Virus record (IMG/VR): IMGVR_UViG_2568526722_000001
From: a virus
Lineage: Duplodnaviria > Heunggongvirae > Uroviricota > Caudoviricetes
Reading direction: 5' to 3' (one strand)
DNA: 32,452 nt
The position numbers and the translations under genes were made by a program. This document shows, piece after piece, positions 4,598-20,628 of the stretch (positions are counted from its first letter, which is position 1; each line of letters begins with the position of its first letter). The notes beneath the pieces were generated by a model. That model was not told where the DNA came from, made no database searches, and was given only the letters and a program-made list of their open reading frames with translations.

Positions 4598-5713
4598 TTA
4601 AATCCCTGCTTTTCTGAATACCTGTGCATCACGCTCACGGAGCTGCTTCAGCGTCAGCCATTCGCCTTTATCGGTGTAAAATTCATCTGGCGACATACCA
4701 CCATCCCGAATCAGCTTTGCTCGGGTTTCCCCCACAATCTGTTTTTGTCTGGTGTAAGGCTGACGCAAAAACCATTCCCTGTAGGTTGTATCTCCGGCCA
4801 CCACGCCATCCATGCTGGCCCGCTCAGCCGGGGAAATATCGCGAACATCAATACCCAGTTCCTTCGCTGATTTCAGAATGAACGTTTCCGTTGAGCGGCA
4901 GCAGAAATGAATTTTTCCCGGCCCCTGCAAATAAGGCACGCTGTGACCTACAGGTTTATTATTCAGCGTATATTTGAGGCGATCCCTGATTCGACATTGT
5001 GGCGTAGTACGATTATCAAGCGTTGATAACCATTGCTTACCCTTAATCAAATCATTATTCGCGCTGGCAAAACTCTCACGGGCAGTAGCAGCAAGATGTC
5101 CAACCGCTGTTTTTGCAATGCTGGCCGCATTAGCCCGGCTCATCTGCAATGCACCATCCTGAAATCCCTTACTGACATGTCCCCGAATTTTTCTTGCGAT
5201 CTGCTCATTGGTATCCCCCAGCAAAAAACCCTGACGCACTGTATTTGTTATGCGTCTGAGCCGATCCGCCTCAAGATCTGAGGCCCACTCACTGAGCAGT
5301 CGTCCCTGGAATGGTCGCGCCATTGCAGCGGCATAAAGTGCATCAGGAGAGATACCAACCAGAGGGTGAACATCAGCAACAAAATCAGGTAGCATAGAAT
5401 CAAACAGACTTAACTGATAACCAGCCTCATAAATTGCCAGCTCGTTCAGCTCTCCGGAGAGACGGGTAAACATGCTGTTAATAGCAGCGCGGTTAACCTC
5501 TCTGACACTCGCCAGAAGTGACTCCAGGCGCGTAACGGTAAAACTACCAGGATCGAGGCTGTCCAGTGCTACCAGCAGGCGAGCTGTAAGCTCCGCATCG
5601 CTGTCATTCAGTATTTTCACCATTCTGGCAGCCACACCAGTGCTATAGCGGGATATCCAGACTGCATGAGCAATTGATTCATCACGCAGCCGTTCATTCA
5701 CGGTTTGCATCAT
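4598..5713 (-). CDS. Phage head morphogenesis protein (SPP1 gp7 / Mu gpF family)
   Basis: 371 aa with features I associate with this family (for example ...TTPQCRIRDR...), located directly downstream of the portal gene. Starts at an ATG ATG pair at 5713 and overlaps the portal stop. Confidence 0.8.
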   Translation of the reverse strand: MMQTVNERLRDESIAHAVWISRYSTGVAARMVKILNDSDAELTARLLVALDSLDPGSFTVTRLESLLASVREVNRAAINSMFTRLSGELNELAIYEAGYQLSLFDSMLPDFVADVHPLVGISPDALYAAAMARPFQGRLLSEWASDLEADRLRRITNTVRQGFLLGDTNEQIARKIRGHVSKGFQDGALQMSRANAASIAKTAVGHLAATARESFASANNDLIKGKQWLSTLDNRTTPQCRIRDRLKYTLNNKPVGHSVPYLQGPGKIHFCCRSTETFILKSAKELGIDVRDISPAERASMDGVVAGDTTYREWFLRQPYTRQKQIVGETRAKLIRDGGMSPDEFYTDKGEWLTLKQLRERDAQVFRKAGI

Positions 5714-7100
5714 TGATTTCCATCAGCATTACACTCTGATTTTTTAATTCATCGATCACTTCCTCTGGACGGGAATCCTGATCGATAAATTTCAACGCCT
5801 GCAACACCCGAACCGCATCAATCTGACGTATATCACCGCCCTGACGCAATGACTGAACAGCCAGCGCGGAGGATGAGTCAAACACCTGGGCAGATACATC
5901 CAGTTCAGTGCGCACATCCACATTGCCACCGCAACTCTCTCCGATCCATTCCGCCATTATCTGGAGAATATTATCGAGGGCATCTTCGAGGGAGTTCGCC
6001 ATTGTATAAAGCGGCGAGTTTTCCTGCATTCGCTCTTCATTAGTCTGATCAACAGATTTGGTGGATGTATTTTCAGCACGCAGAAGTTTAGCGCCGGCAT
6101 GACGCATCTGATTTTCCAGCTTCTCAAGTGATGTTTCGCCAGATTCTATCGCTGCGCCACTATGTTCAACATATTCGAGGCCATTTTTTGTTCTGTCCTC
6201 AAAAATCGTAGCGGTGGATGCACCAACCGTCAGTTCTTCATTCCTGTCCAGCCCGTAGGCCACCAGCAATGGAACGCGGGCAACATGAAGAATATTGTCC
6301 TGCTCGCTCTGGCTTTGCCAGTGCTTGATATTCAGCAAGCCAAGATTAAGCAATGGCGGTGTACCACGCATAAATCCTGTTTTCTTCGTGTACAGTGTTA
6401 CCAGAGGAATATCATCACGGCTGGTATTCCATGACTCATGAAGCGTCCAGACAGATTCGCCATTAGTGCCTTCGCTACGTCGATAAATTTCAACTCGACG
6501 GGGCATAATATGGCGGATCTGCTCCACCTTCTTCTGCCCGAAATCATCACCATCAATAATGATGACCTCTTTTATACGCAAATCAGTGAGAACAACTTTC
6601 CCTTTTTCAACTTTCGATTTCCATCCAATAACCTGGCGTGGATTCAGCATCGTAACGTACGGACGACCACCGGCCGCGTTTTCATCGGCTTTTGTCCGAA
6701 TCTCTTTCATATCCGTTCGTGGATAGTCCACCAGCGCATGTGCCACACCATACTGAAATGCGAGGCTGAAAAATTGCTGCGCCCACACATCCAGTCGGCT
6801 CCCCTCCATGTCGATATTTTCTGCATATTCCCTGATTTTTGCCGGCGTTTCCTCACTCAATACTGTCGGCTCTGCAAATATGCGCCCAATATTTTGCTTG
6901 ATGCTTTCTTCATACACAGGAAGTAGCGTAGCCACAGACAGGCGTTTTTTATAAGCGTCTTCATCTTCGTTAGGCCATTTTGGGAGATAATTTTCCCCCT
7001 GCCTGCGCATTTCAAGCGTACCGCCCATCAGTGCGTCGTTAATATCCCACGCCTCCAGCATATCGTTATAGTCGAGGTTGGGTGTTGATATATCAGCCAT
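5694..7100 (-). CDS. Portal protein
   Basis: 468-aa ORF immediately downstream of the large terminase subunit and upstream of the head-morphogenesis gene. Size and position are typical for a portal protein; ATG start confirmed at 7100. Confidence 0.7.
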   Translation of the reverse strand: MADISTPNLDYNDMLEAWDINDALMGGTLEMRRQGENYLPKWPNEDEDAYKKRLSVATLLPVYEESIKQNIGRIFAEPTVLSEETPAKIREYAENIDMEGSRLDVWAQQFFSLAFQYGVAHALVDYPRTDMKEIRTKADENAAGGRPYVTMLNPRQVIGWKSKVEKGKVVLTDLRIKEVIIIDGDDFGQKKVEQIRHIMPRRVEIYRRSEGTNGESVWTLHESWNTSRDDIPLVTLYTKKTGFMRGTPPLLNLGLLNIKHWQSQSEQDNILHVARVPLLVAYGLDRNEELTVGASTATIFEDRTKNGLEYVEHSGAAIESGETSLEKLENQMRHAGAKLLRAENTSTKSVDQTNEERMQENSPLYTMANSLEDALDNILQIMAEWIGESCGGNVDVRTELDVSAQVFDSSSALAVQSLRQGGDIRQIDAVRVLQALKFIDQDSRPEEVIDELKNQSVMLMEINDANRE

Positions 7101-7102
7101 AA

Positions 7103-8404
7103 TTAAATCCGAAGTGATGTGACTCTTCCGGTCGGTTTGACAATAGGGAATTGCTTAACGATGAAATAACCTCCGGCATCATTCGGGTGATCATTGCCAG
7201 ATTTTTTATCAGGCTCCCCCTTCTCATCCCAGACCTGTTGCTCCAGAGATTCGGCATATAACGGGCAACGCTTCACATTAACTTTATAGCGACGCTCACC
7301 ATTGGCATTGCAGAACATTGCATTCATTGAGTTAACGCGATCTTTTACTGGCGGGTTCGAGCTGTTCACCACAACGTTAAAACCAGCCTGCTTAAGCTGG
7401 GCTATATCCGTCGTACTTGCGTTACTTGATTTTCTGGAATCCCCGGAAGCATCTGGATAAATATAAATTTCCCTCACTTTCCGGTAATCATTCCCATCAT
7501 ACAGCCAGAAGCGTTCTTTAATGATGCGGATCATATCCGGCGTATCGTAGGCATTGATGATTTCAGTTACCGCACATGGAAGCCCCAAACGCAGCACATG
7601 GACGATTCCCGCCATCTTTCCAACGTTAAAATCCATCCCAATATAAATCGGCTCCCCTGGCTGCTCCACTTCTTCGCAATTATTCAGTTTCCGGTCAAAC
7701 TGATGGTAAACAGTACCACTTGTCAGGTTAGTAAACTGTCCTCGCAGATAGGCTTTAATCAGCTCTGGAGGGTATGATTCAAGAAGCGAAGGAATGTAAT
7801 CTGCTGGCAGGTTCTTTTCATTATCGAAAGTAGATGCCTGCACCAGACCATACAGTGAGGCCAGCTCTGTTTTTTCACGCACGGCTTTAACAAACTGCTC
7901 GTAGACAAATTTGAATCCTTCCGGCGTGGTTGTAACGTCAATACCGTTGCGAAGTCCATCAATCTTATAACGCATACGCGCAATTATCTTGCGCCACGCC
8001 GTTCTGGCTTTTTCCTTCGGCAAAATGTCCAGTTCATCCACCAACGCATTACCAATTTTGAAACCGACGATCGTTTGTGGCTTCTCCATCGATCTGCAGA
8101 TAGTGGTTCCCCGATACTGGCGTCCGTAATAAAAGTGAACCTCTTTATTTCCCTCATTAATTTTTACGTTCAATCCCCAGTCAGCAGCAACTTCTTCCAC
8201 TGTAGGGTAAAAAATATCGCGAATTTGGGGATACGTTGGCGCAAAATATCCCTGATTTATACCTGGATGCTCCCAAATCCCCTTGCATATGCCGCCACAC
8301 CCAACCCATGTTTTGCCCGAGCCAAAACCAGCAATATAGGCTTTAAATTTATGGGGCATTGAAAGAAATCGCGCCTGAGGCACATTAAGCGTCGGAGAGA
8401 TCAT
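7103..8404 (-). CDS. Terminase large subunit
   Basis: Walker A motif (AGFGSGKTW) near the N-terminus and a size of about 433 aa. The ATG at 8404 has an AAGGAG Shine-Dalgarno with 8-nt spacing; the track ORF begins at a GTG at 8413. Confidence 0.85.
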   Translation of the reverse strand: MISPTLNVPQARFLSMPHKFKAYIAGFGSGKTWVGCGGICKGIWEHPGINQGYFAPTYPQIRDIFYPTVEEVAADWGLNVKINEGNKEVHFYYGRQYRGTTICRSMEKPQTIVGFKIGNALVDELDILPKEKARTAWRKIIARMRYKIDGLRNGIDVTTTPEGFKFVYEQFVKAVREKTELASLYGLVQASTFDNEKNLPADYIPSLLESYPPELIKAYLRGQFTNLTSGTVYHQFDRKLNNCEEVEQPGEPIYIGMDFNVGKMAGIVHVLRLGLPCAVTEIINAYDTPDMIRIIKERFWLYDGNDYRKVREIYIYPDASGDSRKSSNASTTDIAQLKQAGFNVVVNSSNPPVKDRVNSMNAMFCNANGERRYKVNVKRCPLYAESLEQQVWDEKGEPDKKSGNDHPNDAGGYFIVKQFPIVKPTGRVTSLRI

Positions 8405-9479
8405 CTTCATCACTCCTTACTCTGGCATCAACCACATTAATATTGATCGCCACAGGCTGGGGATGTTCATTATCTTCCACCGTTTCGATCTCTTTGCGCA
8501 GCTTCTGGTTTTCCATTCTGCGCCGTTCAATTTCCAGTTCCTGTAGCCGCTTATCTGCACATAAAGCCCCGCCAGCAGAAAGCAAACGCAACAATTCACG
8601 CCGGGCGGCAGCCTTATCCTCCAGCAGGATCTCAACGCCGAATTTTCCGAATTTTGCCCCTGCATATAATTGCCGCGCATCCCCATCAAGCAGAGTGGTA
8701 TCAGCCATATAAAGCTGTCCCGTTCCCTCACCGCAGCACTTCGGGCAGTCCGGATTGGGTATGGCGTTATCAACAAAGCCGAGGCCTCCATATTCCGGTT
8801 CGGGTTTGCCATCTCTGGAAGCCTGCGCCGCTGCCTTGTCGAATTCTGCTATATCGCGCCACTGGTAGAGATGATTCTCGCCCCAGCAATAACGGCAGTT
8901 AACACGGCGAAATTGTGCAAGCTGATTGGGGTCGGCCAGGACAATGGCCATCAACTGACTCACTAGTAAATCCAGGTCTGCGGTATAGCGTTTCTGGTAC
9001 TGATTGCGGAAGTAGCTGATAGCGCGAAAAACCCTGGCATTTCTAAGCATACGACTGGCGTTGCTGTTAGCTGTCGCACCTTGCCCCTCATAACCGGCTA
9101 GTCGGTACGCCTCTGTCGGCTTTTTACCCTGAGCAACAAGCATCGCAAACTTAGCCTGCTGGTCAGAAATGCCGAATTCATCGGGACAGAACGAAAATTC
9201 CTCCGCGTCGCCCTCATTCAGGCCCGCATCGAATACTGGCTTTTTTTCCTGAGATTTTTCGTTCCGCTTTTGTGCAGTCTGCGCAGATTTTTTCTGCGCA
9301 CTTTTTTGCGCAGTTTTGCGCATTTCTGTCTGCGCATTTTTCGGAGTTTTTTTGATGTAACGACGGGCTGTTGCGTAATTCAGTCCCCTTGCTTCACACC
9401 ATGCCACCGGAGATATACCGGAGCGGGTGTATTCAGCAATATACTCCTGCTGCAACGCCCCCCAGTCCGGTCTGCTCAT
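8385..9479 (-). CDS. Terminase small subunit-like DNA-binding protein
   Basis: 364-aa ORF directly upstream of and overlapping the large terminase. It has an N-terminal HTH-like region, a lysine/alanine/glutamine-rich repeat and an acidic C-terminus. ATG at 9479 with an AGGA Shine-Dalgarno. Confidence 0.6.
   Translation of the reverse strand: MSRPDWGALQQEYIAEYTRSGISPVAWCEARGLNYATARRYIKKTPKNAQTEMRKTAQKSAQKKSAQTAQKRNEKSQEKKPVFDAGLNEGDAEEFSFCPDEFGISDQQAKFAMLVAQGKKPTEAYRLAGYEGQGATANSNASRMLRNARVFRAISYFRNQYQKRYTADLDLLVSQLMAIVLADPNQLAQFRRVNCRYCWGENHLYQWRDIAEFDKAAAQASRDGKPEPEYGGLGFVDNAIPNPDCPKCCGEGTGQLYMADTTLLDGDARQLYAGAKFGKFGVEILLEDKAAARRELLRLLSAGGALCADKRLQELEIERRRMENQKLRKEIETVEDNEHPQPVAININVVDARVRSDEDDLSDA
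9280..9336. repeat. Five phased TGCGCA hexamers each followed by a T-tract (candidate pac or terminase-binding site)
   Basis: TGCGCA occurs at 9280, 9295, 9307, 9317 and 9331, each followed by 3-6 T residues. The array lies inside the small terminase gene and encodes the AQK-type protein repeats. Confidence 0.5.
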
Positions 9480-9482
9480 CAG

Positions 9483-9734
9483 TTAGTCCTGATTTTTATC
9501 CACCCTGAGTAGTTCGCGCAGAGCAAAGGCATCCCCTTTTCTGGCAAGCTTAAACAATGCCGCTCGTAACTCGGCTTCACCTTTCGCTCTGCCCTTACGG
9601 ATGGCCGCATAAAAATCTGTCATTGCTTCCCGATTTTCTTTCAGTCGGTTCAGATCAACATCCAGAACGTCAGCGATTTGTTGTGCAGTCATCCGGCACG
9701 CTGCCAGAGACTCGACTTTCGAATACGGAATCAT
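9483..9734 (-). CDS. Small putative DNA-binding protein of 83 aa upstream of the terminase genes
   Basis: ATG at 9734 preceded by GGGGGTGA. The stop lies 3 nt before the small terminase start. The 5' end overlaps the upstream gene by about 65 nt, so the start is uncertain. Confidence 0.45.
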   Translation of the reverse strand: MIPYSKVESLAACRMTAQQIADVLDVDLNRLKENREAMTDFYAAIRKGRAKGEAELRAALFKLARKGDAFALRELLRVDKNQD

Positions 9735-10602
9735 TTGTCACCCCCATTGATATGCAGGGTGTCTTCTTCCTGTATTTTTCGTGAAGGATTTTTACTGCAG
9801 CGTTGTTCCAGGTGACCTGATGGTGAATGCGTTTATGGCTGGCACCCATCAGTGAAATTTTTACGCACGACGGCGCATACATGACGGAGTAAAAACTTTT
9901 AACGTAGGTTCCGGAATCCAGATACAGCTCGGTCATTCCGCCGCTGTTTTTCTGCGTCTGTTTCTGCCCTAACTGGACAGCACCGATCGTCATAAACAAT
10001 TCACCACAGCGACCGAGATTCGTGTACGTATTCACATCCTCGTTAATGCGCCCCATGAATGAGAACGGTCGATCAACCGAACAGATAAAGCTGTTCATTG
10101 CCTTGCGTTTCACCCACGAAGCATGGCCGCCATTGTCACCAAGAAAATCCCCGCCCTGCGACATAGCGATGGAAAGAGCAGGTATTGATTCGTAGTACGC
10201 CAGCATTTCAGAAAGGATCGCATCCAGTTTCCTTATCGGAAAATAGGCCTGGTCATAGTTGCGATCCACCCGAAACTGGAACTCGTGATAATCATCATCG
10301 AGCTGAATGAAGTATTTACACCCGACCAGTTTTGCCAGGTCGAAACAGGCATTACGGGCGTAAAAAATTGAGCGGCGGTCACAGAAATTATCGGCTTCGT
10401 CAAAACGACTGGCGATATCGGCTTTGGAAAACACCAGCACCTGTTCACCAAATTCAGCCATGTACTGATGCCGTGTCTTATCTTCATCATCAACAACGAT
10501 AAAAATTTTCCCGGTATAGCCAGCACGACGCAACGTCCGGTAAGTCAGAACTTTGTCCGGTCGCCCGTGAGTCAGAATAAAGGCGCAAAAATCATCACGC
10601 AT
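9670..10602 (-). CDS. DxD-motif protein, possibly a nucleotide-sugar transferase-like enzyme (intact counterpart of the K-12 Rac ydaY remnant?)
   Basis: Start taken at the ATG at 10602, which has a strong GGAGGAGG Shine-Dalgarno and overlaps the ParB-like stop (ATGCGTGA). Contains IVVDDED and QLDDDYHEF motifs. The functional call is an inference from these motifs only. Confidence 0.45.
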   Translation of the reverse strand: MRDDFCAFILTHGRPDKVLTYRTLRRAGYTGKIFIVVDDEDKTRHQYMAEFGEQVLVFSKADIASRFDEADNFCDRRSIFYARNACFDLAKLVGCKYFIQLDDDYHEFQFRVDRNYDQAYFPIRKLDAILSEMLAYYESIPALSIAMSQGGDFLGDNGGHASWVKRKAMNSFICSVDRPFSFMGRINEDVNTYTNLGRCGELFMTIGAVQLGQKQTQKNSGGMTELYLDSGTYVKSFYSVMYAPSCVKISLMGASHKRIHHQVTWNNAAVKILHEKYRKKTPCISMGVTNDSVFESRVSGSVPDDCTTNR

Positions 10603-11386
10603 ATTCCTCCTCCTCACCACCATGCATGATCTCCACCATGCGCTGCGTCATCCGGACAAATCCATTTTCAATAGCCTGCTGATAATCAATGATCACCAGC
10701 GCCGACTCCTCGAAAAAACACTGAATTTCAGAGGGGGCGTGAGCGTAATAGTCCGCAATTCTGCTGAAATTAAACACCGTGTGACGTTCTGCCGCACACA
10801 GGAGGAATTTCTCAATATCAGGCTCAAGGGACGCCGAACGTATCCGGCTGATCAGCTCCTGAGTTTTCGTATCGTCGTACAGTTCACTGATATCCGGTTT
10901 ACCGCCCGACGGCTCATAAACAGGCGTATCAATTTTCGTCGTATACGGCTCCTCCTCATTTCCTGTACCGGGCAAAACATCCGTCAACAGTTCATCAATT
11001 TCTGTCGGGATGAAGCCTGTCAGGGAGACATCAAAATCAGCATTGATTAGGTCCGACAGCTCCATCCGCAACAGATCTTCATCCCAGCCAGCATTCATCG
11101 GCAGGCGATTATCTGCCAGGCGGTACGCCTTTTTCTGCTCCTCCGTCAGGCCAGACAGAACAATGACCGGAACAGAATCCATTTTGAGCATTTCAGCCGC
11201 CATAACACGACCGTGACCCGCAATAATTTCGCCCTTTTCGTCAATCAGCACCGGATTAGTCCAGCCGAATTGCTTAATACTTTCTACCAGTTGTGCCACC
11301 TGCTCAGTACTGTGCGTCCTGGCGTTGTGCGCATACGGTGACAATTCTTGTAATGGGCGATAGACTATCTTTAATTTCTCGCTCAT
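10595..11386 (-). CDS. ParB-like nuclease domain protein (full-length counterpart of K-12 Rac ynaK)
   Basis: The N-terminal region (YRPLQELSPYAHNARTHSTEQVAQLVESIKQFGWTNPVLID...GHGRVMAA) has the ParB/Srx-like signature. ATG at 11386 with an AAGG upstream. Confidence 0.7.
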   Translation of the reverse strand: MSEKLKIVYRPLQELSPYAHNARTHSTEQVAQLVESIKQFGWTNPVLIDEKGEIIAGHGRVMAAEMLKMDSVPVIVLSGLTEEQKKAYRLADNRLPMNAGWDEDLLRMELSDLINADFDVSLTGFIPTEIDELLTDVLPGTGNEEEPYTTKIDTPVYEPSGGKPDISELYDDTKTQELISRIRSASLEPDIEKFLLCAAERHTVFNFSRIADYYAHAPSEIQCFFEESALVIIDYQQAIENGFVRMTQRMVEIMHGGEEEEYA

Positions 11387-11523: not shown

Positions 11524-12981
11524 TTAGGAGCGCCAAAAAAAACCTGAAAACAATATAATAACAGGATAAATTTCAAGGCGACCAAGAATCATAGCTATGC
11601 ACATTAAATATTTTGCAATGTCATTAAGCACTCCGAATGACGATGCAGTAGCCCCAAAACCTAATCCCATATTATTAATACATGCAGCCACTGTTGCAAA
11701 TGATGTAAGAAAATCATATCCCATACCATTTAACACCAGTATAAAAAACACCGTGAAGAGAGTATAAAGAAAAAAGAAACTCCATACAGACCTCATTACA
11801 CGATCTGTAACTATCTTCCCTCCTACATTTACACTCAACAACGCTCTGGGATGAGAAAGCTGATTTATCTCGTGTTTGCTTTGTTTGAAAAGTATAAGAA
11901 ATCGAAGTGACTTAATTCCACCACAAGTTGAACCTATACATCCCCCAAAGAAACTTGACGACAGCAAAAACACTATCGTGTGCGTGGGCCAGTTTGCATA
12001 ATCCTGCGTAGCTAAACCATTATCAGTGAGCATGGAGCTGGCAAGAAAAAACGAATGAATAAAACTTCCATGCAAGTCATACATACCTATATGCCAGACC
12101 TGGAAAGAGGTAACAATGATCACCCCTAAGGCTATTAACAGAAAGAAACGAAGTTCAATATCTCTGATTAAAGGTTTTATCGTTTTCCTGCTAATAACAA
12201 TATACCAAAGAGTGAAGTTGAAAGCCGATAGCAGGGAAAAAGAACCAGCCACCAGCTCAACCAAATAGTTATTAAAATATCCGATACTCTCGCTATGAGT
12301 TGAGAAACCACCAAGCGAAACTGTGGAAATCCCGTGACAAATAGCATCAAACAAAGGCATTCCTGCAAGTCTATAACAGACAATACAAGCAATACCTAAT
12401 AAAGAATAAGTTATCCACAGTGTCCGTGACGTATCGGCCAGGCGGGGAGTGAGTTTGTCATCCTTAAATGGCCCCGGCATTTCTGACTGATAAAGCTTTG
12501 CACCACCAATACCCAATAATGGCAATACAGCAACCGCCAGAACAATAACTCCTAAACCACCTATAAAATTTAACTGTGACCGATAGTACAAATATGCCCG
12601 AGGTAATGAACTAACATCATCAATTACAGTTGCTCCTGTTGTTGTTATTCCAGAAACCCCTTCAAACAGAGCATCAATGAACGTTAAATTAAGTTCTGAG
12701 TCAATCCATAAAGGGAATGCACTAATAACAGAAAACAAAATCCAAAACATTACAATTATAATAAACCCATCACGGGTACGTAATTGAATGCCAGATTTCT
12801 TAGTTGTATACCACGCTCCGCCACCAATGCAAAAAAATATAACGAAAGTTATAAAGAAAACGAACAGGCTTTTTTCTTTATAAAACAATGCTACAACCAT
12901 TGGTGGCAACATTGAAAGACTATAGAGCCAAACCAGGAACCCACACATATGAGTAACAACTCTTACATGAGATGTATTCAT
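11524..12981 (-). CDS. trkG: Potassium uptake protein TrkG
   Basis: 485-aa polytopic membrane protein from MNTSHVRVV..., matching my memory of the Rac prophage TrkG from E. coli K-12. The gene is visibly AT-rich compared with its neighbours. Confidence 0.9.
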   Translation of the reverse strand: MNTSHVRVVTHMCGFLVWLYSLSMLPPMVVALFYKEKSLFVFFITFVIFFCIGGGAWYTTKKSGIQLRTRDGFIIIVMFWILFSVISAFPLWIDSELNLTFIDALFEGVSGITTTGATVIDDVSSLPRAYLYYRSQLNFIGGLGVIVLAVAVLPLLGIGGAKLYQSEMPGPFKDDKLTPRLADTSRTLWITYSLLGIACIVCYRLAGMPLFDAICHGISTVSLGGFSTHSESIGYFNNYLVELVAGSFSLLSAFNFTLWYIVISRKTIKPLIRDIELRFFLLIALGVIIVTSFQVWHIGMYDLHGSFIHSFFLASSMLTDNGLATQDYANWPTHTIVFLLSSSFFGGCIGSTCGGIKSLRFLILFKQSKHEINQLSHPRALLSVNVGGKIVTDRVMRSVWSFFFLYTLFTVFFILVLNGMGYDFLTSFATVAACINNMGLGFGATASSFGVLNDIAKYLMCIAMILGRLEIYPVIILFSGFFWRS

Positions 12982-13118
12982 ATCTAAATATTCTTTCAAT
13001 TATAACCACCTTGCTGCAATATTATGATTATACTGTATAAAATTTAACTCCTCTTAGATCTTACTTCACTGTTCCTTATGAAACAATCATCAAAATGAAT
13101 CATATTGTAGTTAAGATT

Positions 13119-17734: not shown

Positions 17735-19564
17735 ATGAGCACTTCCGCATACAAGAGCAAAATTCGAACACTCCAGTGCGCGTTAAAAAACGGTGAATTT
17801 GAACCATTCATACAACATATCCGTTTTCCATACTTTAAAAATATAGAGCAGAATGCAAGGATCGATTTTCAGTTCCCTATAACGGCTTTAGTAGGAAAAA
17901 ATGGAACTAATAAAAGTTCTGTTATCAAAGCGCTATTTGGTTGCCCACATGGTAAAAATATAACTCGTTATTGGTTCACAACTGAAACAGATGAGTTTCC
18001 TGACCTAAAACTTGCTGATGGCAGTTCTCTTAAACCTAGATATATATATGGATATAAAAATGCTGATGGCCGTTTAGTTGAAATACTCCAAGCACGTATC
18101 AATGCTACCAAGAAAACAATCGATTATTGGGAAACAAGTCGACCATCTGTTGGTGATAACATGGAGAGTATTTCGGATGATCTGGGTGCTAATAGTAATG
18201 CAACCAGATGGAAAAAAATCAAGAAGGGATTGGTTTTCCTAGATTTCAGATCGGAAATAAGTGCATTTGATAGATGTATGTATCACTCTGATTTTAAATT
18301 AAGAAAGAAGAAGAGTGGTGTATTAATTACAAAGCAAGACTATATCAGAAGCAAATCTAAATATATAAAGAAAGCTTTTGATGAAAAGCTAAGTAATTTA
18401 AGACTCTGGGGGGCGGAAACCATTGTTAAAAATATAACCTTGGCGCCAGAACTAGTTGAGCACGTCTCATTTATATTAGGGAAAAAATATAAAGTCATTA
18501 AATTTCTTGAGCATCGGTTATTTGGAACCAGAGGAGGAACCGCTTTACTTTCAACTGATAAGTTGAACTATACAGAAGCGTTTGCTGGAAGTGGTGAATT
18601 TGCAATAGTTTCACTAATACTCAATATTTATTCGGCCAAACCTAATTCATTAATTCTTCTTGACGAACCAGAAGTTTCACTTCACCCTGGTGCACAAAAA
18701 AGGATGATGGATGTTCTGTACTCTATTGTTGAGCAGAAAAAACATCAAGTGGTAATATCAACCCATTCTCCTGTTATTGTGAACACTCTTCCCAAAGATG
18801 CCATTAAATTATTTGTTTTTGATGAAGAGAGTGAAACAGCTAAAATAGTTCAAAATATAGCACCGGATGAAGCTTTTATAGAGCTAGGGCATGATATTAA
18901 CAAGAAAACAATAATTGTAGAAGATAAATTAGCTAAAGCAATTATAGATAAAGCGATTAAAAATGATGAAAGATTAAGCTTATCATTTAGTGTAAGTTAT
19001 ATACCAGGTGGTTCGGAGACCATTTTAAGCAAGCATCTTCCCAGTTACGCTGTGGTAGAACGCAATGATATTTTGTTTTTACTTGATGGTGATAAAAACA
19101 AAAAAATAAAACCAGTAAGAATTAGTGAAATTGCTGATGCTGATTTAGTTAATACAATGTGCAAATATTATGGTTGCGAGTTAATTATCAATGCCAGTGG
19201 TAGTAATGGCAAAAAAAATGAACAAGAATCTAATAGACTCAAAAGGCAAGTGCTTGAGTATGCATTCAATAAAGTGCAGTATTTACCATTTGATACTCCC
19301 GAACAATTACTCATTGAAAAGGCAATTACGCCAAGTGAAAAAGAAATAATTGATTCACAGACCTGGAGTTCTAATGATCCAGAACTGTATAAGAATCAAA
19401 TAAGATTATTAGCGCAACACCTGTATGATAAAGAAGAAGTAAATGCAGAGGAAATTTTTTGCCTCCAACAAATGATGACCGCAAGACTTAAAAATGAATT
19501 GCCTGAATTTATAAAAATAAGAAAAATAATTACTCAGGCTCTTGACCGTGGTATCATTAGGTAG
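17735..19564 (+). CDS. ABC-type ATPase with a C-terminal TOPRIM-like domain (OLD-family / GajA-like putative nuclease)
   Basis: Walker A (LVGKNGTNKSS); a long insert; signature-like AFAGSGEF; Walker B (LILLDEPEVSLH); H-loop (VISTHSP). The C-terminal region has an invariant-Glu motif (TIIVEDKLAKAII) and a DxD motif (LFLLDGDKNKK) as in TOPRIM. 609 aa, in an AT-rich segment. Confidence 0.7.
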   Translation: MSTSAYKSKIRTLQCALKNGEFEPFIQHIRFPYFKNIEQNARIDFQFPITALVGKNGTNKSSVIKALFGCPHGKNITRYWFTTETDEFPDLKLADGSSLKPRYIYGYKNADGRLVEILQARINATKKTIDYWETSRPSVGDNMESISDDLGANSNATRWKKIKKGLVFLDFRSEISAFDRCMYHSDFKLRKKKSGVLITKQDYIRSKSKYIKKAFDEKLSNLRLWGAETIVKNITLAPELVEHVSFILGKKYKVIKFLEHRLFGTRGGTALLSTDKLNYTEAFAGSGEFAIVSLILNIYSAKPNSLILLDEPEVSLHPGAQKRMMDVLYSIVEQKKHQVVISTHSPVIVNTLPKDAIKLFVFDEESETAKIVQNIAPDEAFIELGHDINKKTIIVEDKLAKAIIDKAIKNDERLSLSFSVSYIPGGSETILSKHLPSYAVVERNDILFLLDGDKNKKIKPVRISEIADADLVNTMCKYYGCELIINASGSNGKKNEQESNRLKRQVLEYAFNKVQYLPFDTPEQLLIEKAITPSEKEIIDSQTWSSNDPELYKNQIRLLAQHLYDKEEVNAEEIFCLQQMMTARLKNELPEFIKIRKIITQALDRGIIR

Positions 19565-19587
19565 TGATTCTGGATGCAGAGGGAAAA

Positions 19588-20628
19588 ATGAAAAAAATCA
19601 AAGTGTTTGACTTCTTTTCCGGTTGTGGTGGAACCAGCCAAGGTTTCCATCAAGCTGGAATGGATATTGTTTTTGGCCTCGATTTCGACGTTGATGCAGC
19701 CAGTTCATTTCGTGCAAATTTCCCGCAGGCTGCTTTTATTAACTCGGACATTAGGTTAATCGACAACAATGCCATAAACAAGTTAGTAAAAAAACATCGT
19801 AATGATTACATTCTTTTTTCAGGATGTGCGCCTTGTCAACCGTACTCTAAGCAAAACTCAAATAAGAAAAATGATGATCCACGATTAGATCTATTAAAGG
19901 AATTCAGTCGCTTTGTAGAGCATTATATGCCTGATTTTATTTTTGTTGAAAACGTGCCAGGAATGCAAAAGTTTAACAAAAATGAAGGAACATTCATGAT
20001 GTTTTTAGAAATGCTTTCATCAAAGGGATATAGTGTAGATTATAAAGTAATGCCAGCTGCGTGGTACGGTGTACCACAGACGCGAGAAAGATTAGTGCTC
20101 ATTGCATCCAAGGATTTTTATGTCGCATTGCCTTCTCCTACACATGGGGTTGGAAATACTCCCTATTCAACAGTAAAGGACTGGATCGCTAATTTACCGA
20201 AGATAGAAGCAGGAGAAAAGCATAATAGTATTCCTGATCATGAAGCTGCACGCTTATCAGAGCTTAATTTACGTAGAATAAAATGCACTCCTGAAGGTGG
20301 AAGTCGAGAATTTTGGCCAGATGAATTGATTTTAGAATGCCATCGTAACCATAAAGGGCATACAGACGTATATGGACGTTTGAGTTGGGACAAACCAGCC
20401 AGCGGACTAACAACTCGTTGTATTAGCTATTCAAATGGACGTTTTGGACATCCAACACAAAATCGAGCAATATCGGTTCGTGAAGCAGCGTGTCTACAAA
20501 CATTTCCTTTGGATTATAAATTTATTGGTTCTTTGCAATCTCGGGCTCGTCAAATAGGAAATGCGGTCCCTCCGAAGATGTCTGAAACGATTGGAAAACA
20601 TTTGCTTAATATAATCAAAGCCTCCTAG
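19588..20628 (+). CDS. DNA (cytosine-5)-methyltransferase
   Basis: Canonical C5-methyltransferase motifs in order: I (FDFFSGCGG), IV (GCAPCQPYS), VI (ENVPGM), VIII (PQTRERLVLIA), IX (RAISVREAACLQTFPLDY), X (QIGNAVPP). Starts 23 nt after the ATPase stop; the track ORF begins earlier at a GTG at 19564. Confidence 0.9.
   Translation: MKKIKVFDFFSGCGGTSQGFHQAGMDIVFGLDFDVDAASSFRANFPQAAFINSDIRLIDNNAINKLVKKHRNDYILFSGCAPCQPYSKQNSNKKNDDPRLDLLKEFSRFVEHYMPDFIFVENVPGMQKFNKNEGTFMMFLEMLSSKGYSVDYKVMPAAWYGVPQTRERLVLIASKDFYVALPSPTHGVGNTPYSTVKDWIANLPKIEAGEKHNSIPDHEAARLSELNLRRIKCTPEGGSREFWPDELILECHRNHKGHTDVYGRLSWDKPASGLTTRCISYSNGRFGHPTQNRAISVREAACLQTFPLDYKFIGSLQSRARQIGNAVPPKMSETIGKHLLNIIKAS

Follow-up and report, generated by a model that had tools for sequence, protein, structure and literature searches.

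A conserved TGCGCA hexamer array inside the small terminase gene of a Rac-like prophage as a candidate P1-style pac site

The stretch of DNA analysed here (the window) is the 32,452-nt IMG/VR virus record IMGVR_UViG_2568526722_000001, and within it we studied an array of TGCGCA hexamers that lies in the gene for the small terminase subunit (terS) and that an original prediction, made from the letters alone, had proposed as a candidate packaging-initiation (pac) site. The window carries tape-measure, minor-tail, lysis, Q-like antiterminator, replication, immunity, sieB, recE/recT and trkG-like genes; by this gene content the element is a complete Rac-like lambdoid prophage and not, as had been considered, a satellite that might need a helper. 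The features around the array are listed below by their positions in the window.

8385-9479, minus strand: terS, small terminase subunit, 364 amino acids (aa), with a Terminase_2 core at aa 122-321 (phrog_51, E 3e-76).
9345-9479, minus strand: terS codons 1-45, a three-helix N-terminal domain resembling a helix-turn-helix (HTH), PDWG..WCEARGLNYATARRYIKK, the presumed reader of the hexamers.
9363-9365, minus strand: the Arg39 codon (CGT) in the presumed recognition helix, a residue that co-varies with the fifth hexamer base.
9180-9344, minus strand: terS codons 46-100, a low-complexity linker predicted to be disordered (predicted local distance difference test, pLDDT, ~46-61), whose coding DNA carries the array.
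9271-9336, no strand assigned: the hexamer array, proposed as the TerS-binding part of the pac site from its positions, statistics, conservation in homologues and codon fixation.
9280-9285, 9295-9300, 9307-9312, 9317-9322 and 9331-9336: five exact TGCGCA copies, at spacings of 15, 12, 10 and 14 bp.
9271-9276: a degenerate sixth copy, TGTGCA, with an exact TGCGCA at the same spot in many relatives.
9241-9353, plus strand: T-runs that flank and separate the hexamers (A-tracts in the coding strand), starting at 9241, 9255, 9268, 9288, 9302, 9314, 9323, 9337 and 9347.
9288-9293 (T6), 9302-9307 (T6), 9314-9317 (T4), 9323-9325 (T3) and 9337-9341 (T5): the T-runs that follow the exact hexamers.

The identity of terS, and with it the proposed placement of the repeats inside a small terminase gene, is confirmed by a match to Pfam Terminase_2 (PF03592; E 1.4e-8, 35.9 bits against a gathering cut-off of 26.1), and 896 of 5426 complete E. 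coli genomes carry the gene; that of E. coli SC516 (NZ_CP025048) is 100% identical. The five exact hexamers are where they had been reported, 10-15 bp apart, and a run of 3-6 T starts 0-2 nt behind each of them. The array covers codons 48-67 and, with the degenerate copy included, nt 143-209 of terS. TGCGCA occurs 19 times in the whole window compared to 11.9 expected, while five copies in 57 bp have a Poisson probability of ~2e-11 per 57-bp span and ~7e-7 window-wide; three or more copies in 57 bp were never reached in 300 first-order Markov simulations. The T-runs recur about every 12 bp (Fourier peak at period 12) rather than at the 10.5-bp helical repeat, which rules out helical phasing of the T-tracts. 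A wedge model predicts curvatures of 57 degrees (at 9353) and 50 degrees (at 9314), both in at least the 99.7th percentile of the window, making the array region the second-highest curvature peak of the 32 kb. Of the phased, bending A/T tracts originally suggested, the bend is supported by the curvature prediction and the phasing is not.

The N-terminal domain (N-domain) of TerS looks like a helix-turn-helix (…ISPVAWCEA-RGL-NYATARRYIKK), with helices at residues 6-20, 24-31 and 35-38 in an AlphaFold2 (AF2) model of pLDDT 85-89, and weakly matches the HTH of IS66 TnpA (E 2.7e-4). It has no Pfam name even at a lenient threshold, and sequence searches of the PDB returned only noise for TerS. A search of a 5.8-billion-protein collection with full-length TerS found only relatives at least 80% identical, and a profile search with the N-domain found only truncated open reading frames (ORFs) of 44-81 aa, which were used as the AF2 alignment. 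Several TerS PHROGs have only the N-domain in common, and the domain is found joined to different TerS cores; single-linkage clustering of the C-terminal parts merged nearly all of them.

Directly after the N-domain, the array encodes aa 48-67 of an AQK-rich linker, as had been noted, but the peptide is better read as a passenger of a DNA signal. In the window, four copies fall in the xAQ frame (NNT GCG CAR), and the fifth falls in another and encodes MRK (aTG CGC Aaa). In Klebsiella phage 5 LV-2017, whose TerS is 44% identical, the six copies use all three frames (TAQ, TAQ, PAQ, tTG-CGC-Act, TAQ, TGC-GCA), and over 83 distinct genes with TGCGCA the three frames are used 354, 75 and 25 times. 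The peptides over the hexamers vary widely by lineage (TAQ, SAQ, NAQ, PAQ, CA, MRK, LRT, VRK), and the TGCGAA copies of Pasteurella phage Pmp11 encode NCETNCESNCET. Where the linker does contain AQ dipeptides, 576 of 613 use GCG for Ala and 592 of 613 have T as the base before it, compared to a GCG share of 23% among Ala codons elsewhere in the same genes; in the group with Lys at residue 39, the Ser of SQ is TCG in 55 of 58 cases versus 1 of 26 elsewhere. For invariant HTH-domain residues, in contrast, four to six synonymous codons are in use across this set of genes, so the sequences are well diverged and shared descent alone cannot explain the codon fixation. These comparisons identify the array as a conserved DNA-level element under selection, with the peptide largely a passenger.

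To see how far the array extends, we collected ~170 distinct terS 5′ regions sharing the N-domain from IMG/VR, GTDB species genomes and GenBank phages, with hosts in the Enterobacterales, Aeromonas, Vibrio and Pasteurella. Every intact N-domain terS but one carries 3-12 hexamer copies between ~nt 130 and 330, at a density of 24-30 copies/kb compared to 0.35-0.68/kb in the rest of the loci. The original prediction had named absence of the repeat from close homologues as an observation that would count against it; the repeat is present, in 4-6 copies, in all 35 distinct sequences of the E. coli family. It is also found in distant homologues (TerS 36-44% identical) and in TerS proteins with only the N-domain in common. 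The few exceptions to the pairing of domain and array are one Parashewanella gene without an array, one E. coli R39H variant and several frameshifted genes. The genes upstream of terS vary by lineage, with lysis genes directly upstream in some, and across the collection the array follows the N-domain, not the neighbouring genes. A second TGCGCA cluster, absent from the window's own family, lies 150-190 bp beyond the first in relatives whose core is 324-335 aa long and in a Vibrio prophage, for example L210 (Vibrio salinus prophage, 1631-1955, 4 + 8 copies) and L001/L087 (Klebsiella phages, terS nt 347-397). In Rac-SA53 (L002, 3023-3322), a terS fusion annotated 'gpOterS' from which the N-domain is deleted, four hexamer positions are left and two of them carry mutations (AGCGCA, TGCGAA); relaxed selection after loss of the reader domain would be consistent with this, although it is a single case.

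Many database entries of the terS family (e.g. L071, L094, L123, L186, L192, L203, L205; proteins P0121-P0240) are truncated, at 44-81 aa, or frameshifted in the A-run-rich linker. The A/T homopolymer runs between the hexamers appear to be frameshift-prone, and such entries could be real pseudogenes or sequencing errors, or possibly reflect phase variation.

The arrays fall into two types, one of TGCGCA and one of TGCGAA with its complement TTCGCA, often as the palindrome TGCGAATTCGCA, and the type co-varies with residue 39 of TerS. A-R-R-Y (R39) accompanies TGCGCA in 73 distinct N-domains and A-K-R-Y (K39) accompanies TGCGAA/TTCGCA in 19, with no mismatched pairing among these 73 + 19 domains. 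The two states are scattered over the domain tree, where Fitch parsimony on a neighbour-joining tree gives ~9 changes as a rough figure. When Providencia phage PSTCR3 (K39, seven TGCGAA) is compared with a P. rustigianii prophage (R39, nine TGCGCA), the 43 other domain positions show only 2 differences. The base concerned is position 5 of the hexamer, which is C in both Arg-type hexamers (TGNNCA, here and in phage P1) and A in the Lys type.

As a separate observation, the [S/T]-A-K codons of the recognition helix in K-type relatives (e.g. L085, L088, L089; terS nt ~110-117) themselves spell TGCGAA. In the Lys39 class, one copy of the site is thus inside the sequence encoding the proposed reading residue.

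We consider it probable that the TGCGCA array is the TerS-recognition part of a P1-style pac site without Dam sites. Sequence comparison supports the proposed candidate pac site through homologue conservation, frame independence and co-variation with residue 39. In the mechanism we propose, multiple 6-bp sites would lie in the stretch of terS that encodes a flexible linker, just downstream of the N-terminal HTH, and one HTH of an oligomeric TerS would read each hexamer, and residue 39 of the recognition helix would contact base pair 5 (C:G for Arg, A:T for Lys). Bending or wrapping of the DNA around the TerS assembly would be made possible by the intervening A/T tracts, and the TerS-array complex would recruit a T4-type TerL that cuts nearby; the first headful would start at this cut and later headfuls would follow processively.

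The closest precedent is phage P1, whose pac site is organised as four hexamers, an integration host factor (IHF) site, the cut and three hexamers (HEX4-IHF-cut-HEX3) inside pacA (Sternberg & Coulby 1987 and Skorupski et al. 1994, summarised in PMC10028697). In the P1 GenBank annotation, seven TGATCA/G hexamers start at pacA nt 193, 200, 212, 227 and 323, 335, 346, in two frames, and the two clusters flank the mapped cuts at nt 276-285 with the IHF site between them. The window resembles this arrangement in having palindromic TGNNCA hexamers in the 5′ third of a small terminase gene, just after an N-terminal HTH with a TARRY helix, at irregular spacing (7-15 bp in P1) and in more than one frame, and P1 packages by headful. 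The bipartite arrays of some relatives (Klebsiella-type, Vibrio) are reminiscent of HEX4 and HEX3. At the N-terminus of PacA there is a Pfam HTH_23-like motif (aa 10-44), with NLNPNTARRYLRA compared to GLNYATARRYIKK in the window TerS; the common helix is TARRY[IL] and the remainder of the proteins is unrelated. The window TerS also differs in having a Terminase_2 core rather than a PacA-like body, and its family has a second specificity class (TGCGAA with Lys39). In P1, synonymous recoding of the hexamers cuts packaging ~9-fold (PMC10028697).

Other known packaging sites share fewer features with the array. The lambda cosB site has several short sites (R-sites) next to the terminase genes, read by an N-terminal HTH of TerS (the winged HTH of gpNu1) with DNA bending by IHF; unlike here, lambda is a cos phage with fixed cohesive ends and a GpA-type TerL, and its sites are upstream of Nu1, not inside the gene. 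The pac region of SPP1 and SF6 (pacL-pacC-pacR) combines a TerS, G1P, made of an N-terminal HTH and an oligomerisation core with short boxes and bent, A-tract-rich DNA partly in terS. The window shares the HTH-like domain on a core, the repeated short boxes and A-tract-rich DNA that is predicted to be bent, whereas the SPP1 boxes are no simple exact hexamer and the TerS and TerL families differ. In SPP1, multiple TerS contact points flank the cut and packaging is by headful, and TerS binding in vitro is weak or non-specific (PMC9611059). P22, a headful-packaging, lambdoid-type temperate enterobacterial phage, likewise has pac inside the terS coding sequence (gene 3) (PMC9611059, PMC11260489), but as a single 22-bp asymmetric site with no array, and its TerS is without such an N-terminal HTH.

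The two packaging genes that come after terS are listed here.

7103-8413, minus strand: terL, large terminase subunit, 436 aa, with a T4-type ATPase and an RNaseH-like nuclease, the presumed cutter near the array.
5694-7100, minus strand: portal protein, 468 aa, DUF4055 (phrog_145, E 2e-165).

A grouping of TerL with cos-type terminases, which the original prediction had said would argue against a pac site, was not seen among its protein-family matches. TerL matches Terminase_6N (E 3.7e-33) and Terminase_6C (E 3.4e-10) of the T4-like type and has a weak, sub-threshold match to the PBSX family; against Pfam and NCBIfam it gave no GpA (lambda)-, HK97- or P2-type match, and no solved TerL was matched in a sequence search of the PDB. 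There is no HNH gene between the lysis genes and the portal gene. The characterised relatives of TerL are Jersey-, Kaguna- and Dhillon-like siphophages at 40-50% identity (Jerseyviruses ~43%). Jerseyviruses package by headful, as judged from PhageTerm, pulsed-field gel electrophoresis and restriction patterns (PMC10783031), and Sciku is predicted to do so (PMC6753286); papers on Yersinia phages and on in-silico E. coli prophages contained no packaging data. Headful packaging of this prophage is thus likely from the relationships of its TerL.

Several observations weigh against the assignment as a P1-style pac site. The link to PacA is weak, since a hidden Markov model of the N-domain ranked PacA first among 217 ORFs at only E 0.008 (9.7 bits) and BLASTP gave E 0.08; the PacA homologues in the phage collection were all P1-like, so that no PacA profile was available for firming up a remote homology, and we regard the similarity as suggestive, short of homology. 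The hexamer core is CG, not AT as in P1, and the window has no GATC in 9230-9360, so Dam control as in P1 cannot apply. Whereas P1 has two clusters, the window has one, with no second even when one mismatch is allowed; the IHF consensus WATCAANNNNTTR has no match in the first 600 nt of terS, a consensus scan being a weak test, and TerL has no pairwise similarity to P1 PacB. The hexamer spacing is irregular (7-16 bp) and fits no simple geometric model. Helix 3 of the AF2 model is only four residues long (35-38), and although the top Foldseek fold matches of the N-domain model were all HTH DNA-binding domains, none was significant (E at least 0.5). The codon for residue 39 is only ~20 bp from the array, so that recombination can carry helix 3 and the array along together, and such linkage, without direct contact, may account for part of the co-variation. 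The Parashewanella hymeniacidonis prophage L231, whose N-domain is diverged (…LNYQTARRYIKN), has no TGCGCA/TGCGAA array anywhere in its 3-kb locus; its site may have moved, changed or been lost. Finally, one study placed K1G-like TerLs with the HK97 3′-cos group by tree alone (PMC11641727), and the argument from a headful-type TerL is therefore not airtight.

A further and more tentative proposal, to which we give somewhat less than even chances, is that the HTH and the array form a portable packaging-specificity cassette with a one-residue code, in which Arg39 reads C at position 5 and Lys39 reads A, and which has moved between unrelated TerS cores and between phage lineages of the Gammaproteobacteria. 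In that case a single amino-acid change, together with recoding of the array, could be enough to switch packaging specificity, and for no earlier TerS-pac pair would the sequence code have been readable. The array family is widespread and apparently undescribed: in the literature we found no report linking TGCGCA to a terminase, and hexamer repeats together with pac and terS were found only for P1, compared to which the non-GATC hexamer, the two specificity classes and the other terminase cores are new. Recognition of viral DNA by the small terminase is still called unclear and controversial, and specific binding of TerS to pac has been hard to demonstrate in P22, Sf6, SF6 and SPP1 (PMC9611059). 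The present system is a legible case, with 3-12 repeats of an exact 6-bp site, the coding sequence of a small HTH immediately before them, two natural classes that are one residue and one base apart, and near-isogenic natural pairs; specific binding, stoichiometry and DNA wrapping are thus directly testable. Related genes occur in Klebsiella, Enterobacter, Providencia and Aeromonas prophages besides E. coli, and a known pac signal would help to predict hotspots of lateral or generalised transduction (pseudo-pac sites) and would allow the design of packageable phagemids, as has been done with P1.

Among the alternatives, the one that survives best is that the array is an autoregulatory operator, at which the N-domain binds the hexamers to repress or time transcription or translation of terS-terL. 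The association of the array with the N-domain applies equally to this explanation, the sites are inside the regulator's own gene, and the difficulty of demonstrating TerS-pac binding in other phages (PMC9611059) also speaks for it. However, no promoter-like site was found in 8900-9900, the bipartite arrays of relatives resemble a cleavage site between binding sites, and in P1, the precedent for just such an arrangement, it serves packaging. To our knowledge, TerS proteins have no autoregulatory role of this kind. We therefore regard an operator as unlikely, although it could coexist with a pac role.

It is also conceivable, but very unlikely, that the array acts through nucleic-acid structure, as mRNA hairpins tuning terS translation or as plus-strand terminators stopping antisense transcription into the late operon. 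The array RNA does fold more stably than shuffles (z = -4.3), and four terminator-like hairpins occur on the plus strand in 9269-9336 (six over a 1-kb scan compared to 1.4 expected); this signal arises automatically because palindromes alternate with T-runs. A structural role would leave room for compensatory changes, yet one exact hexamer is kept in all copies and across bacterial orders. Arrays of the Pmp11 type are all TGCGAA in one orientation, which makes pairing impossible, and in K-type arrays the coding strand has the A-run after the palindrome, so that on the opposite strand the T-run precedes the hairpin. A Rho-independent terminator, whose pattern the plus strand matches, was rejected on the conservation of the exact hexamer and the existence of same-direction arrays.

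Recognition by another DNA-binding protein is, in our view, highly improbable. The candidates would be a host factor, the ParB-like neighbour, an 83-aa HTH-like ORF directly upstream of terS, or a methylation-dependent factor linked to a C5-methyltransferase, given that the hexamer contains GCGC; the ParB_N protein, the small TerS-like ORF and the C5-methylase are indeed all in the window. None of these candidate partners is conserved with the array, and only the TerS N-domain both accompanies it and co-varies with it. The upstream ORF has a homologue in 89 of ~250 loci and, as it is not conserved with the array, was dropped as its reader, other lineages having lysis genes in its place. The methylase cassette occurs in 32 of 5426 complete E. 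coli genomes, compared to 896 with terS, and a Dam-like regulation of the GCGC hexamers by this rare accessory insert (moron) was likewise dropped.

Hardly credible, finally, is that the AQK linker arose by tandem duplication or slippage and the DNA motif is functionless. In its favour are the copy number, which changes in steps of 9 bp (three codons) among members of the E. coli family, the predicted disorder of the linker and the majority of xAQ codons among the copies. Against it, ~22% of the copies use another frame and specify unrelated residues, and the codons for Ala and Ser, like the third positions before them, are far more uniform than ordinary codon usage would give, whereas invariant HTH residues are spelled with varied synonymous codons. 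The linker peptides run from basic AQK to acidic, Cys-rich NCET, and the hexamer shifts in step with residue 39.

Several neighbouring genes deserve mention in their own right. The 83-aa ORF at 9483-9734 (minus strand; 69 aa in RefSeq) looks like a small HTH protein and aligns with the central part of PHROG 309 'terminase small subunit' (E 8e-23); the loci with a homologue are essentially those of the E. coli Rac-like family plus seven others. The accessory cassette at 17735-20628 (plus strand), opposite to the flanking prophage genes, consists of two genes. One encodes a 609-aa AAA_21/AAA_15 ATPase, annotated elsewhere as an ATP-dependent nuclease and with weak PtuA/MADS3-like matches, and the other a 354-aa C5 cytosine methyltransferase. 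Among solved structures its top matches are DNMT1 catalytic domains (E ~1e-39), with HaeIII and HhaI behind them; the methyltransferase would modify the hexamers if its target were CG or GCGC. At 9670-11386 (minus strand), immediately before the packaging genes, there are two overlapping genes, one for a TET-associated glycosyltransferase (PF20691; phrog_842 'beta-glucosyl-HMC-alpha-glucosyltransferase') and one for the ParB_N protein (YnaK-like); no TET/JBP dioxygenase was found among the window ORFs scanned. A TrkH/TrkG-type potassium transporter gene, a host-like accessory gene of the late region, is located at 11524-12999 (minus strand) between the lysis genes and the packaging region, like trkG in the K-12 Rac prophage.

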